Source: a virus
Taxonomy: Duplodnaviria; Caudoviricetes
Virus record (IMG/VR): IMGVR_UViG_3300026088_000014
Coordinates: 1 to 64,000 of that record
Length of the DNA: 64,000 nt
Reading direction: 5' to 3' (one strand)
The notes beneath the pieces are model-generated. The model had not been told where the DNA came from, did not search any database, and saw only the letters and a list, made by a program, of their open reading frames with translations. Within the stretch, counting starts at the first letter, position 1, and each line of letters begins with the position of its first letter. Shown here piece by piece: positions 53,560 to 58,655 of the stretch. The position numbers were made by a program, and so were the translations under genes.

Positions 53560-54103
53560 TTGTTTCCGGCAGTAGTTTCATTCCAGAAATCTTCCTGCCA
53601 GCTTCAGCCGCACTTTCGAGTGCGGCTTTTTTTTCGTCCTCGGTCAAAGCCTTTGGCCTTTGCCTTGATAATTGTTGAGCCTTTGGATCAGTGCGATCCA
53701 GCCACGCCTTAGCCTTGGCCCTTAGGCTTTCCGACGGCTCCAGTTTTAACCAAGCGTCGGTATCCTCAATTTGCTTGGCAACCCTAGCGTCATGCTCAAT
53801 CCTAGCAGCTATCCTGTCATTACAGTTGCTAAACCACTTTTCAATCTCGCCAACGCTAGGCAACCATTTAGGCGTATCATACGAGATTCCACTTAGAGAT
53901 ACCGCTTTACGAACTAAATCTGGTGGATGCTGCATAAATATGCCCATGATGAGGGCGGTATAGCCTTGCTCGTCAGATGGGGTCGAGTTTGGGTATGACG
54001 CGAGCAACATCCTCGCGAACCTCTCCGCTTCCAAGCGACTGCAGAAAATCGCTGTATCTCTCTTTGTGAGATTTTTCTCTTCCATATCCTGATCCATTGC
54101 CAT
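53501..54103 (-). CDS. Putative helicase-loader-like replication protein
   Basis: Follows the initiator gene; KWLPSVGEI motif typical of such partners. Confidence 0.5.
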   Translation of the reverse strand: MAMDQDMEEKNLTKRDTAIFCSRLEAERFARMLLASYPNSTPSDEQGYTALIMGIFMQHPPDLVRKAVSLSGISYDTPKWLPSVGEIEKWFSNCNDRIAARIEHDARVAKQIEDTDAWLKLEPSESLRAKAKAWLDRTDPKAQQLSRQRPKALTEDEKKAALESAAEAGRKISGMKLLPETIMTINQQIDPQPERHEDFS

Positions 54104-54803
54104 TTCCTTTCCAGTCTTTTTCGTTTCGACACCATTTACGCCAAGTTCGACTCCAATCCAGTTTCAGGCCGTCCTTACCCGGCTTTGCAATCCAGTAATC
54201 CTTGAAATCCTCCATGGCCGCCGCGGCGCGGCTTTCACCCAGCAGGCCAACCGAGTACAGACTATCCTCATTACTGGGAATCCAGTCAGATGGAAGTCTC
54301 GTCCCCCTGCTTCCATCGGAAGTCCGCTTTTTTGTTTCACGTGGAACAAGTGGTAGCTGAGCCGAAGGCGAAGCTGCCTCTTTCTTACTTACTTCTTCTT
54401 CTTTGTAATTGTGGTTGTGGTTAGCATTGCGGTCGCACCATCTCCGCATAGCCGCCCGCTGTGCGGACGCAATGCGGTCGCATGACCTAAGTAGCTCAGA
54501 TTCCACTCTCTTGTGGTATAAATACCCCTCTCTTTCTTCAAAGAAATCAAGTAATATTTTTGAATGATATCGCCATGAATTTCCGTGTAGACCTGTGACC
54601 TGTCTGAGAAACTTGGCGTCGTTAGGAAGGGGGCCACCGCGAGCCCAATAGGCCGAAATCAGCAGCAGATAGGCCCCATGCTGCAGCGTGTTGAGGTGCC
54701 TAGTGTCTCCGAGATAGTCATGCCAGTATATTGGCATCCACAATGGGCGATTGCGTCGGTGTTGCAACGATTCGGTGGGAATGTTATTTATATTGTCAGT
54801 CAT
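53973..54803 (-). CDS. DUF1376/YdaU-family replication initiator
   Basis: WMPIYWHDYLGDTRHL...HGAYLLLI..YW..GGPLP; C-terminal DWSRTWRKW. Confidence 0.85.
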   Translation of the reverse strand: MTDNINNIPTESLQHRRNRPLWMPIYWHDYLGDTRHLNTLQHGAYLLLISAYWARGGPLPNDAKFLRQVTGLHGNSWRYHSKILLDFFEEREGYLYHKRVESELLRSCDRIASAQRAAMRRWCDRNANHNHNYKEEEVSKKEAASPSAQLPLVPRETKKRTSDGSRGTRLPSDWIPSNEDSLYSVGLLGESRAAAAMEDFKDYWIAKPGKDGLKLDWSRTWRKWCRNEKDWKGNGNGSGYGREKSHKERYSDFLQSLGSGEVREDVARVIPKLDPI

Positions 54804-54907
54804 GGCTGACTTTCCCTTTCATCAGTTATGGCGAGTCGCCGGCTGGTAACCGACGCGATCTTAGGAAAGGCTCCGGACTCGTCTGCCGGAGCCTTTTTCT
54901 ATGTCAA

Positions 54908-55267
54908 TCAGGTTACAAAGGAACTGATGGTCAGTCGAGCCCCAAGCGGTGCCGCATCTTTCCCGCCATAAGACACAACTAATAGACGGCAGAGGCAATC
55001 ATCCTCTACTAATCCGACTCGTTGCGCCAAATCGAGCAAAACTTTCACGCGGTTGTCCACATCAATTTTTCGCTTGTTGGGTGGGTTGAGGACAATGGTG
55101 GCACTAAACTCTCCCCTAACCTGCTGATGCTTTCCGAGCTTGGCCAGCCAGCCGGCTTGGTCGATCCAGCGGACGTATTTGGGGTCGCGATAGACCACCT
55201 TGCCTTTCGATCGCCAGATGCGATTAAGCGACGGGGGCCACGGTAGATCCACAATGATCTGGCTCAT
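54908..55267 (-). CDS. rusA: RusA-family Holliday junction resolvase
   Basis: LPWPPSLN, DVDN..K.LLD, G.VEDD. Confidence 0.85.
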   Translation of the reverse strand: MSQIIVDLPWPPSLNRIWRSKGKVVYRDPKYVRWIDQAGWLAKLGKHQQVRGEFSATIVLNPPNKRKIDVDNRVKVLLDLAQRVGLVEDDCLCRLLVVSYGGKDAAPLGARLTISSFVT

Positions 55268-55754
55268 GGGGGCACAATAGGCGGCTTTCCAACTCGCGTA
55301 TATCGGCGACGATCTCTTGGTTGATCAGCACAAGTTCTTCGATTTTCCAGATTGCGTTCAGGACCGCTGTGTGGTCGCGGTTAAAGCGCATGCCGATGGC
55401 CGGGTAACTGAGCCTTGGGTTAGTATGCTTCCTGGCGAGATACATGGCCACGTGACGAGCCATCGTGATTCGTGCGGTCCTTTCCCGACTCATCATGTCC
55501 TCAATCAGAACCCCATAGTAATTGGATACCTCGTGGGTAATGTTTGAAAACGCTACACGTCCGTCGGGTCGATTGGGGATTTTGACGATTTCACGAATAA
55601 ATACCCGGATGATGGGGTGTTCTAGTACCTCATCCTCTACTGGTATTTGTTTAGGGTGAAGGTCGATTCCTTTGTCGGCCACAGCATTGGCTGGATACAT
55701 CAATCGTTGCCGGACTTCCTTGGCGTGCTGAATCATATCGGTGGCTAGCGTCAT
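55224..55754 (-). CDS. DnaA C-terminal (domain IV-like) HTH protein
   Basis: ARHVAMYLAR...SYPAIG..FNRDHTAVL.A..KI. Confidence 0.85.
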   Translation of the reverse strand: MTLATDMIQHAKEVRQRLMYPANAVADKGIDLHPKQIPVEDEVLEHPIIRVFIREIVKIPNRPDGRVAFSNITHEVSNYYGVLIEDMMSRERTARITMARHVAMYLARKHTNPRLSYPAIGMRFNRDHTAVLNAIWKIEELVLINQEIVADIRELESRLLCPHEPDHCGSTVAPVA

Positions 55755-55756
55755 GA

Positions 55757-56197
55757 CTACCTCCGGTGTGGGATGCAGTAGAGTTGCTTGTGACCCTCGC
55801 ACCACGGTTTGTTCTCTTCCGTGGGTGCCGCGCACATGACCGCCAAGCCCTTCGGGTCGCCGCTGAGGTCGATAACAGCCCGGCACCTGTCATGTCCTAC
55901 CTCAAGGATGGATAGGCCCTTCCCGAGCCACGGCTGGGGCTCTACGGCCATGATTGGTTGCGTGGCTAATTGAGAAGGCGGCGGCGTAAAACGCAGACTT
56001 TGTGGATGTGCCGGTTTACGGCGTTGCCCTGGCGGCAACAGGCGCGCCTTTAGTTCGAGGCGATGCACCTTGCCTAAGACAGAGCAGCGGCTTTTCTTCA
56101 AAACTGCAGAAATCTGTGAACCAGAGCGTCCGTCGCGCCACATTTCTCGCAGCGTTGCGATTTCATCGTCAGTCCAATTTGTCTTTGCCATGTCCAT
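55757..56197 (-). CDS. gcrA: GcrA cell-cycle regulator homolog
   Basis: WTDDEIATLREMW..G.S.SQI...SRCSVLGKVHRL; C-terminal CR...C...WC..H zinc motif. Confidence 0.85.
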   Translation of the reverse strand: MDMAKTNWTDDEIATLREMWRDGRSGSQISAVLKKSRCSVLGKVHRLELKARLLPPGQRRKPAHPQSLRFTPPPSQLATQPIMAVEPQPWLGKGLSILEVGHDRCRAVIDLSGDPKGLAVMCAAPTEENKPWCEGHKQLYCIPHRR

Positions 56198-56378
56198 CCA
56201 CCCAGTCAGCAATGCTGACCCTGTTCTTGGTTGCTTTGGATATTTTCAGAATCCACTCGGCTCTTGGTTTGCGTCCATTGATCCGCCACTTGCAGACCGC
56301 CGAGTAGGATGCGCCGATTTGTGTCGCGAATTCTTGTGACGTTATTTCCTTATCGATCAAGTATTTGTCGAATTTCAT
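56169..56378 (-). CDS. Cro-like HTH regulator
   Basis: 69 aa; SQEFATQIGASYSAVCKWRINGRKP...VSIADW. Confidence 0.8.
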   Translation of the reverse strand: MKFDKYLIDKEITSQEFATQIGASYSAVCKWRINGRKPRAEWILKISKATKNRVSIADWVDGHGKDKLD

Positions 56379-56465
56379 AAAAATCTCCAGAAATTCCTTG
56401 ACGGAGTTTCACGGTCGTACTATCACGATCGTCGGGAGATTACAACACGAAAGAATTCGCAGGCT

Positions 56466-56507
56466 TTCTTTTTTCTCTCTCACCTCCGGTGAGAGAGAGA
56501 AAAAAGA
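56466..56507. promoter_or_regulatory. CT/GA hairpin in the leader of the RAMP-like operon
   Basis: TTCTTTTTTCTCTCTCACC-TCC-GGTGAGAGAGAGAAAAAAGAA; shares the CTCAC/GTGAG core with the early hairpins. Confidence 0.7.
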
Positions 56508-56548: not shown

Positions 56549-57211
56549 ATGCTTGATAAAGTAAAACCGAGGGCCACGTCGGTCATTCCGACAACGAGAG
56601 TTACGATTACCCCTCCGAAACTAGGAAGAGCCAAGGTTAGAATCGTCGGCACCGCTCCATATATTCAAAATCGTTTTAGTTCTGACAACCGCGACAAGAT
56701 GCTTGCGGCTCAAAAGGAGGGATCGGGAGCAAAAAGAACTCGCAAGGCAAAGGCCCCCAAAGACTTCGAGAAGATTTTTAAGGCTTCAATGCACATTTCC
56801 CAAAAAGGCTGGATTGGTATTCCGGCCACTGCATTGCGGAACGCAATGATCGATGCTTGTCGGCTGACCGAAATGGACATGGTGCGGGCAAAGATGTGCA
56901 TCAAAATCATTCCTCAAGGATTGGATACCGAAAACCTAGAGGGACTTGTTGAAATCAAAGGCACGCCAAGAATGCACATTGAGCGTGTAAAAGTTGGCAT
57001 CGCGTCAACAGATTTAGCGTCGCGAGCGATGTTCGAGAAGTGGGAATCGACGTTCGAGATCGAGTGGGACGATGATGTGTTCAAGGCTCAGGATATCGTT
57101 AACCTTCTTGCCAGAGCCGGATGGCAAGTTGGCATAGGCGCTGGTCGCCCCCTCTCAAAGATGAGCGGCGGCACTGGTAAAGGCACATTTGAAGTCGATA
57201 TGAAAGGATAA
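56549..57211 (+). CDS. RAMP/Cas7-like protein (Vipr-like)
   Basis: 220 aa; RIVGTAPY first strand, GIPATALRNAM (cf. RAMP IPGSSLKG.L), C-terminal Gly-rich loop VGIGAGRP...GGTGKGTFEV. Confidence 0.7.
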   Translation: MLDKVKPRATSVIPTTRVTITPPKLGRAKVRIVGTAPYIQNRFSSDNRDKMLAAQKEGSGAKRTRKAKAPKDFEKIFKASMHISQKGWIGIPATALRNAMIDACRLTEMDMVRAKMCIKIIPQGLDTENLEGLVEIKGTPRMHIERVKVGIASTDLASRAMFEKWESTFEIEWDDDVFKAQDIVNLLARAGWQVGIGAGRPLSKMSGGTGKGTFEVDMKG

Positions 57212-57216
57212 GACAA

Positions 57217-57672
57217 ATGAGCATTCAAGACGAACTCCTTCTCATCAAAGGCGACAGCGAACTCCTTACCGGAGAAGAGGTTGTAAAGTGGGCACGCGCT
57301 CATCCAGACTCAGAACTCTATAACGACCCCATCTTCTGTGGCTGGGATGAAAAGAAATCGGCCTATGAACACTGGCTATGGGGCGCAAGACGTTTGATTG
57401 CGCTGCATGTCGTCTACGAGGATGGTGAGCGAAAATTTGTCTCACTGTCTGTTGACAGGGCCAGAGATGGCGGCGGCTACCGGGATATGGACGAGGTGCT
57501 CCGCAGCAAGGCCCTGCATGAAGTCATGTTGGCCGATGCGTTGCGCGAACTTGAGAGGATGGAAGCAAAGTACAATAGACTTCTACAGCTCAAGCCAGTT
57601 TGGCGGGCAGCCGCCAGAGTACGTGGAGCGCAACGGAAGGGGAAAGGAGGGGGTGCAGGAAAGGCAGCTTAG
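57217..57672 (+). CDS. Partner protein of the RAMP-like gene
   Basis: 151 aa; LLTGEEVVKWAR.HP.S.L...W......A.....ARRLI; sits between the RAMP-like gene and the array. Confidence 0.7.
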   Translation: MSIQDELLLIKGDSELLTGEEVVKWARAHPDSELYNDPIFCGWDEKKSAYEHWLWGARRLIALHVVYEDGERKFVSLSVDRARDGGGYRDMDEVLRSKALHEVMLADALRELERMEAKYNRLLQLKPVWRAAARVRGAQRKGKGGGAGKAA

Positions 57673-57911
57673 CAGGCCCAGCTCAGCACAGCTTAGCCGA
57701 GTCAAGCCCGGCACAACCCAGCGCAGCATAGCAAAGCAGGCCAAGCGGTGCAGAGCGAAGTGTAGCTTGGAGAAGCCGAGTGTGGCATGGCAAAGCAGGC
57801 GCGGCCCAGCGAAGCTTAGCTTAGTCAAGACCGGCCCAGTATTGCCCAGCAAAGCAGGCAAAGCAAAGCCAAGTGTAGCGGGGCGAAGCATAGAAAAGTG
57901 AAGCACAGCGA
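57667..57911 (+). ncRNA. RGY-NN pentamer array, four units of 11-12 pentamers separated by GCAAAGCAGGC; candidate guide RNA array
   Basis: 45 pentamers parsed: AGC 22, GGC 10, AGT 7, other 6; delimiter at 57731, 57790 and 57849, with a variant at 57667. Confidence 0.8.
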
Positions 57912-57923
57912 GAAATAAAGACA

Positions 57924-58655
57924 ATGAGTGAAGTTGGTCATAACCTTCCGCCAAGCATGACAACTACAGCCGGAGAGATCATGCGCGATCTCTCTGGCTG
58001 GCTTTCTGAGCATCCTGTCATTCAGGATGAAACCGAAGCTAAAGAAGCAAAGATTTTTATTGATAGAGCAAGATTGGGATTAAAGGATTTAGAGGATGAA
58101 CGGGTAAATCTAGTTAAACCGCTTAATCAGCAATTGGAGCAAATCAATGAGCATTACCGACAACCACGAGACACTCTCAGAAAAGTCCTCGATGAGCTCG
58201 AACGTCGAGTTACCGGATTTCTCACAGCTGAAGAGGCGAGACATAGACAGGATATTGCAGAAGCTAAGCGAGTTGCGGAGGCTGCTGAAGTCGCTGCGCG
58301 GGAAGCTGAGCGGCAAGAGTTGGCTGTCTTTGAACAAGCTAAGGCTGGAGAGCTTGGACTTGACGTTGCAGCTGTTACACTGGAAGCGAATGCAAAGTTT
58401 GAAACGTGGAAAAAAGCCAAGCGCGCGGAAATCCGCGAGGAAAGGGAAAAGGTAACACTTCCCAAAGGACTCACCCGCCCCAAGCGGATGCGAGATTATG
58501 AGACGCTTGTTGTCACAGACGTTGTTGCGGCAGTGCAGGTGATGAAGGATAGTGACCGCATCATCGAGGCCGTGCGAAAATCCGCACGGTCATACCAGAA
58601 AGTCTACGGTCATTATCCGCCGGGAATTGAAGTCAAGATAGAGCGGAAGTTATAA
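57924..58655 (+). CDS. Coiled-coil phage protein (Gam/Gp157-like)
   Basis: 243 aa; GHNLPP, EDER..LVKP. Confidence 0.6.
   Translation: MSEVGHNLPPSMTTTAGEIMRDLSGWLSEHPVIQDETEAKEAKIFIDRARLGLKDLEDERVNLVKPLNQQLEQINEHYRQPRDTLRKVLDELERRVTGFLTAEEARHRQDIAEAKRVAEAAEVAAREAERQELAVFEQAKAGELGLDVAAVTLEANAKFETWKKAKRAEIREEREKVTLPKGLTRPKRMRDYETLVVTDVVAAVQVMKDSDRIIEAVRKSARSYQKVYGHYPPGIEVKIERKL

Follow-up and report, generated by a model that had tools for sequence, protein, structure and literature searches.

An AGC-dominant VIPR locus with a contiguous, tail-less guide array in a phage of about 77 kb

Main finding

The phage locus described here is very probably a VIPR (Viral Interference Programmable Repeat) system, in which a Cas7-like RAMP protein and the guides of an adjoining array would form a ribonucleoprotein that silences double-stranded DNA by a 1-nt-skip rule. 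It belongs to a phage of about 77 kb and lies in the window that we analysed (the first 64 kb, or 64,000 nucleotides, of the 77,038-bp virus record IMGVR_UViG_3300026088_000014). Carrying this reading are the homology and fold of Vipr, the grammar of the array, the linkage of gene and array throughout the family, triplets that are conserved beside dinucleotides that are random, the turnover of guides unit by unit, and one target within the clade. The original prediction had described such an architecture, and it does exist, as told in the texts of two preprints (bioRxiv 10.64898/2026.04.26.720920 and.720927); its assignment of the locus to VIPR is supported. In the text of the former (bioRxiv 10.64898/2026.04.26.720920), VIPR is a CRISPR-related, RNA-guided silencer of DNA, first described in 2026, with 667 published systems of seven types.

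Genomic context and control region

The virus record is linear and was rated 100% complete by CheckV. No tyrosine integrase (PF00589) was found in the phage, and lysogeny by that route is therefore not supported. The GC content of the window is 54.7%, and a megablast search with 20 kb against GenBank phages gave no match. GcrA is known only from Alphaproteobacteria and phages that infect them, and the GcrA gene in the leftward early operon (Table 1) thus suggests an alphaproteobacterial host. As listed, the GcrA and DnaA-domain open reading frames of this operon overlap by about 130 nt. Because the operon runs on the opposite strand, the early region is divergent, with the vipr locus first in its rightward arm. 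Here, the onset of the array comes 3 bases past the stop of the accessory gene, and the exonuclease-like gene that follows the array keeps its position in two close relatives (L055 and L056). Neither a CRISPR repeat-spacer array nor partner cas genes (Cas5, large subunit, Cas6) were found in the vipr neighbourhood, and the 5-nt array is the only repeat, other periodic arrays being absent from the 77 kb. The locus, found in a virus record, is minimal and, within the neighbourhood covered by the cas check, non-CRISPR, with vipr and one accessory gene.

Table 1. Features of the vipr locus and its surroundings (positions in the window)
Feature	Position	Strand	Remarks
Leftward early operon	53973-56378	-	HTH regulator, GcrA, DnaA C-terminal-domain protein, RusA, DUF1376 replication protein
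HTH regulator	56169-56378	-	Left of vipr
Possible vipr-operon promoter	56398-56426	+	TTGACG, 17 nt, TATCAC; by eye; identical in 93% relative L056
Inverted repeat	56465-56507		Perfect, 19 bp; CT-rich arm, 4-nt loop, GA-rich arm
vipr	56549-57211	+	220-aa Cas7-like RAMP protein (Vipr homologue); good ribosome-binding site
Accessory (vap-like) gene	57217-57672	+	151 aa; begins 5 nt past vipr stop
Guide unit U1	57675-57739	+	13 pentamers; NN = CC TC AC TT CG CA CC AC CC GC AT, then constant AA AG
Guide unit U2	57739-57798	+	12 pentamers; NN = CA GG AG GA GT TT GA CG GT AT, then AA AG
Guide unit U3	57798-57857	+	12 pentamers; NN = GC CC GA TT TT CA CC CC AT CC, then AA AG
Guide unit U4	57857-57911	+	11 pentamers; NN = AA AA CA GT GG GA AT AA GA AC GA; without terminal AGCAAAGCAG
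Gene directly 3' of array	57924-58655		ATG at 57924; weak PHROG match to 'exonuclease' family (E 1.3e-10)

By scan, neither a sigma-70-type promoter nor a terminator was found, and since this consensus scan gave no sigma-70 site, the promoter picked out by eye is a weak candidate for that of the vipr operon. Between it and the vipr start lies the inverted repeat, and a palindrome of the same style and of different sequence occupies the corresponding place in an 85% relative (L066). The repeat may serve to control the vipr operon, either as an operator or as a hairpin in the RNA; an Rfam search with it returned only chance-level miRNA matches.

Vipr protein and accessory gene

Both of the RAMP hallmarks that the original prediction had pointed out, IPATALRNAM and GIGAGRP...GGTGKGTFEV, are present in the vipr translation. 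Pfam contained no match for Vipr, and PHROGs only a family of unknown function; a profile built from 32 relatives matched exactly one solved protein, namely the 'SUSP1 Vipr protein' (PDB ID: 36pp_D; hmmsearch E 1.1e-6). Moreover, the hhalign comparison with SUSP1 Vipr (YP_009199429.1, from NC_028808.2) gave a probability of 94.5% with E 7.8e-8 over 172 columns, and spanned residues 29-220 against SUSP1 residues 5-192, which is nearly full length. The best structural matches are backbone subunits of the Cas7 family, with Csm3 and Cas7-11 as the nearest solved folds, and so the RAMP/Cas7 fold, too, has been borne out. In both sequence and structure, then, the protein is a homologue of SUSP1 Vipr with a fold of the Cas7 type. 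Its family comprises 3,978 clusters (at 50% identity) at E 0.001 or better.

According to the texts of the preprints (bioRxiv 10.64898/2026.04.26.720920 and.720927), R138 of SUSP1 Vipr is the thumb arginine that holds the second G (G2). In our alignment this residue coincides with the invariant R159, and the middle G is the most conserved position of the array. The G-contacting residues D177 and W178 of SUSP1 are not kept, their places being taken by A198 and G199. The G-loop residue aligned to D177 is an alanine in the AGC clade and a glutamate in most GGC loci. A rule by which this single residue sets A versus G at the first triplet position was rejected as stated, there being four alanine loci with GGC arrays and two glutamate loci with CGC arrays.

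Forty homologues of the accessory gene were collected, and of 76 related loci, 39, some of the GGC clade among them, have a tblastn homologue of it adjoining vipr. The AF2 model of the accessory protein (pLDDT 90) displays a weak winged-helix-like N-terminal domain and a helical hairpin. The resemblance of this model to the DNA-binding vap proteins, as these are presented in the text of the preprint (bioRxiv 10.64898/2026.04.26.720920), is not conclusive. The accessory family and SUSP1 vap1 are unrelated (hhalign probability 0.2%).

Structure of the guide array

In line with the original prediction, the stretch from 57675 to 57911 parses into pentamers without phase errors, allowing for a 1-nt overlap at each AGCAG/GC junction. 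No other stretch of the 77,038-bp record shows a 5-nt period; lag-5 identity here is 0.543 against 0.275 +/- 0.033 in 2000 dinucleotide shuffles (z 8.2), and lag-59 identity is 0.567 (z 8.1). While the parse itself is the same as before, the earlier count of 45 pentamers had booked AGCA as a 4-nt remainder, and keeping the boundary pentamers gives 48 (AGC 25, GGC 10, AGT 7, TGC 2, AGA 2, AAC 1, and GGA 1). The triplet is RGY in 42 of these, with six departures, and has G in the middle in 47. Likewise, the phase break reported at AGCA-GGC is a real junction, though we recast it as an overlap of 1 nt, as in staggered arrays already published: the four units (13, 12, 12, and 11 pentamers) are such that neighbours have one G in common at AGCAG/GC, and the unit spacings of 64 and 59 nt are of the form 5k-1. 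The 11-mer GCAAAGCAGGC stands exactly where it had been placed, at 57731, 57790, and 57849, with no further copy in the 64 kb (0.04 expected).

The variable dinucleotides of successive units are identical at 4 of 20 and 3 of 20 positions, which is the chance level. Only AGCAA AGCAG is constant in the units, which are without 3' tail, hairpin, ribozyme, or spacer. In fact, no secondary structure is predicted for the array (fold z -0.05), and an Rfam search found no hammerhead and no other family. The last unit, U4, extends into the ribosome-binding region of the gene that follows.

Related loci

To see how gene and array keep company elsewhere, we gathered 54 distant loci from species-representative genomes of many phyla (34-47% identity), and 49 of them have period-5 arrays beside vipr. 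These are GGC-dominant in nearly all cases, with higher-order lags of 44, 49, 54, 59, 64, and 69 nt, all of the form 5k-1, and the units of the GGC clade likewise end in xGCAG/GC. Among metagenomes and IMG/VR, all relatives at 65% identity or above carry AGC-dominant arrays, and the AGC triplet is therefore a property of the clade rather than a sign of decay. The description of the locus as an AGC-dominant four-guide variant with an accessory gene stands as regards the dominant triplet, the four units, and the accessory gene, though AGC marks the whole clade and not this copy alone.

For the internal pentamers of 54 unique, in-phase units from 14 loci, the information content is 0.59 bits at position 1 (A 66%, T 16%, G 14%), 1.37 bits at position 2 (G 89%), and 0.99 bits at position 3 (C 77%, T 15%), against 0.01 bits at each of positions 4 and 5, where no base prevails. 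Within the clade, then, the triplet is conserved and the dinucleotide is random, which agrees with the earlier expectation that the dinucleotides would vary more among relatives than the triplets. Units of the clade hold 8-17 pentamers, and the boundary spacings equal 4 mod 5 in 71 of 92 cases. As the units were defined by the GCAGGC motif, this definition accounts in part for the constancy of GGC at their start and of AGCAG at their end, but not for the regular 5k-1 spacing.

Comparisons with the closest relatives reveal how the guides change. The array of L055 (97% Vipr identity) is the same as that of the window. In L056 (93% Vipr identity), with near-identical flanks, U1 is replaced by two unrelated units whose junctions fall in the constant boundary, and units 2-4 are identical, U3 wholly so, apart from one G/T change in U2. 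Judged from these sequences, with U1 replaced and U2-U4 retained, guides are exchanged as whole cassettes. The single change lies at window position 57785 (U2 pentamer 10, GGCAT against TGCAT in L056), at the first triplet base, and fits the low constraint there. At 85% identity (L065-67), only the boundary is in common with the window's array. A third scaffold triplet within the Vipr family, CGC, dominates the arrays of two IMG/VR loci whose Vipr is 44% identical (L074:1939-2326 and L075:2139-2526), and which place the array upstream of the accessory gene and vipr.

Guide targets

To test the skip rule, 317 guides called across all the loci were compared, at skips of 0-3, with 0.7 Mb of related DNA in which the arrays had been masked. 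Skip 1 alone was in excess, with 7 matches against 2.5 for shuffled guides, and six of the seven came from one guide (L064:195, at L064:195-259); skips 0, 2, and 3 gave only self-matches in unmasked arrays or matches at chance level. At skip 1, this guide matches the antisense strand of the vipr site that encodes the G-loop (GIGAGRPLSKM), scoring 21/22 in L063 (L063:170-201) and 20/22 in the vipr of five other clade members. The skipped bases all fall on third (wobble) positions of codons, so that the guide spells codon positions 1 and 2. Against its own vipr and that of the window (57131-57163) the score is 18/22, and the mismatches there are mostly in six-fold Arg, Leu, and Ser codons. By our own estimate, the chance of one 21/22 match corresponds to E about 2e-3 (317 guides, 1.4 million positions). 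One natural target in the clade thus fits the 1-nt-skip rule; this target, of a single guide and antisense to the mRNA, is compatible with DNA or RNA targeting.

The search for gapped target patterns proposed at the outset was rewarded in this guide of a relative (21/22 at skip 1), but not in the window's own guides, for which we have no convincing target in IMG/VR, in five related phages, or, for U1, in 401 alphaproteobacterial genomes. At skips 0-3, the guides have no self-target anywhere in the 77 kb of the phage. An exact search of IMG/VR with the full-length NNx patterns for U1 and U2 gave 0 matches. When seeds of 8 dinucleotides from U1-U4 were searched there and then extended, the best matches overall reached 19/20 and 20/22, with E between about 0.2 and 2, and U2 gave nothing. 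We take as chance the 20/22 match of U1 (E about 0.4), the 19/20 match of U3 in three homologous contigs (44% GC against 54.7% here; E about 0.2-0.7), and the 20/22 match of U4 in contigs of 28% GC (E above 1). The three U3 contigs (L095, L103, and L106, from IMG/VR) have the match in frame in an open reading frame of about 1000 aa (...YEPDFLQPPIPDTD...). In the five related phage genomes U3 had no match at up to 3 mismatches, and their full sequences add nothing for the window's guides. For U1, the 401 alphaproteobacterial genomes gave 0 matches at up to 2 mismatches, and there was one 3-mismatch match in four genomes. The guide of a Bradyrhizobium prophage had one match in 121 Bradyrhizobium genomes, equal to the reversed control.

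Proposed mechanism and alternative explanations

Most likely, vipr, the accessory gene, and the array would be co-transcribed rightward from the divergent early control region. Protomers of Vipr would bind the transcript, one per pentamer, each holding an (A/G/T)-G-(C/T) triplet and leaving the variable dinucleotide exposed. One guide of 10-11 informative dinucleotides would come from each of the four units, and its end would be set by the constant ...AGCAA AGCAG pentamers together with the 1-nt register slip at AGCAG/GC. On double-stranded DNA the resulting filament would, by the published rule, pair with two bases and skip the third, and the genes that it would silence are those of rival phages or of other mobile elements, among which rival VIPR systems may be counted. 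What we infer in this account is the transcription and processing of the array, the formation of the ribonucleoprotein, DNA and not RNA as the target, the silencing, and the phage's own targets.

An improbable alternative keeps the VIPR-type ribonucleoprotein, but has this clade act on RNA transcripts or pair by a rule other than the 1-nt skip. Consistent with it, the one natural target that we found complements the sense strand, and hence the vipr mRNA, the solved folds nearest to Vipr (Csm3 and Cas7-11) act on RNA, and two of the G-loop contact residues differ from those of SUSP1. However, the significant match occurs at skip 1 alone, those at skips 0, 2, and 3 being self or chance, and a strand bias cannot be shown by one target; moreover, the characterised systems, as the preprint texts have it, bind double-stranded DNA and have targets on both strands. 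Very improbable in our estimation is a reading in which the repeats serve at the level of DNA, for instance as iterons bound by a protein or in packaging or replication, or are a relic in decay, and do not make up functional guides. The missing promoter, terminator, and processing signals in our searches would suit such a reading, as would the 6 of 48 pentamers that depart from RGY and the want of a proper end in U4. Yet dozens of unrelated genomes have this grammar next to this RAMP gene, with the triplets kept and the dinucleotides random, and between phages that are 93% identical the array turns over by cassettes, the remaining units being identical. The homologous SUSP1 arrays, besides, are given in the preprint texts as expressed and Vipr-bound. 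The least credible alternative, to which we attach next to no probability, has the repeat encode a low-complexity peptide, as from the 167-aa +2 open reading frame at 57398-57901. Mechanical open reading frames do cross the array on both strands, although that one overlaps the accessory gene out of frame. As for periodicity, neither the 5 nt of the pentamer nor the 59 or 64 nt of the unit is a multiple of 3, and the 0.01 bit at positions 4 and 5 also speaks against a peptide. Since relatives differ in unit length by 5k-1 nt, no conserved reading frame passes through the array, and the original prediction is upheld in treating it as something other than coding sequence.

Within the VIPR reading, which we prefer, a further idea can be put forward only tentatively, as we think it somewhat doubtful: that the AGC clade is a functionally orthogonal VIPR lineage with an A-preferring (A/T/G)-G-Y scaffold, self-delimiting guides, and guides aimed at each other's vipr. 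If so, the GGC start, the AGCAA AGCAG end, and the minus-1 slip would replace tails, ribozymes, and hairpins as separators of guides. Since the skipped bases fall on wobble positions, escape from vipr-directed guides would then be open only via six-fold Arg, Leu, and Ser codons.

Comparison with known systems

Of the published variants, the closest in kind are the 'staggered' arrays of vrRNAs, in which, by the legend of fig. S18 (bioRxiv 10.64898/2026.04.26.720920), each vrRNA ends on the base with which the following one begins. The text of that preprint adds that staggered arrays were not confirmed by RNA sequencing, and its methods on type classification give YNNNG as an alternative repeat type (bioRxiv 10.64898/2026.04.26.720920). 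As far as this text and legend describe them, staggered NGY-type systems are like ours in the phage-encoded Vipr RAMP protein with an accessory gene, the contiguous array, the 1-nt overlap, and the degenerate first base of the triplet, by which a unit reads Y-NN-N-G. Compared on that text and legend, our AGC-dominant locus fits, from its sequence, the staggered, YNNNG-type variants of the preprint.

The type II system of SUSP1, an Escherichia phage, consists in the preprint texts of Vipr (YP_009199429.1, PDB ID: 36pp), vap1, and four vrRNAs (bioRxiv 10.64898/2026.04.26.720920 and.720927). Shared with our locus are the homologous phage-encoded Vipr, the order of vipr, accessory gene, and guides, the four guides of about 12 pentamers, and, as far as those texts go, the lack of self-targeting. 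As a control, our period-5 detector recovered the SUSP1 vrRNA regions as GGT-NN runs, spaced apart and with a tail of about 40 nt after each. In contrast to the SUSP1 guides, which are GGY-NN, each with a pseudoknot tail of about 40 nt and with spacers in between, those of the window are mostly AGC and are free of tail, spacer, and predicted structure; moreover, the window's accessory gene is unrelated to vap1, and alanine and glycine replace D177 and W178 in the G-loop. The type II features, namely a structured 3' tail of about 40 nt and vap1, are thus absent from the locus.

Non-canonical VIPR arrays obtained with a genomic language model include GAC/NN, CAC/NN, WGT/NN, and TGH/NN (bioRxiv 10.64898/2026.10.21.760802). 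From what is told of them in that text, they resemble ours in the five-base units, the fixed triplet other than GGY, and the adjoining Vipr-like fold, though AGC/NN is not among the motifs named there, and their 10 repeats compare with 8-17 pentamers in our clade. More distantly, the Cas7 subunits of class 1 CRISPR systems (Csm3, Cmr4, and type VII Cas7) have the RRM core, thumb, and glycine-rich loop that are also seen in Vipr, and they polymerise on RNA at a fixed step, as by analogy would be expected here too. However, their step is 6 nt against 5 here, sequence identity is about 10-13%, and they come with a CRISPR array and other cas genes, none of which adjoins the window's vipr.

Bench work on VIPR is known only for the GGY-type, tailed systems of type II. 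The present locus offers a compact and complete natural example of two less-studied features, the AGC scaffold and the tail-less staggered array. Its mostly-AGC triplet should help to show how the fixed bases are read by Vipr, and to make guides without cross-talk to GGY systems, and its array provides a case for how single guides are cut or delimited. The clade, for its part, supplies sequence-level evidence, outside the model systems, for the 1-nt-skip code and for phage guides aimed at a rival vipr. Set beside these known systems, the locus is a genuine VIPR system, and the picture of what VIPR is stays unchanged.
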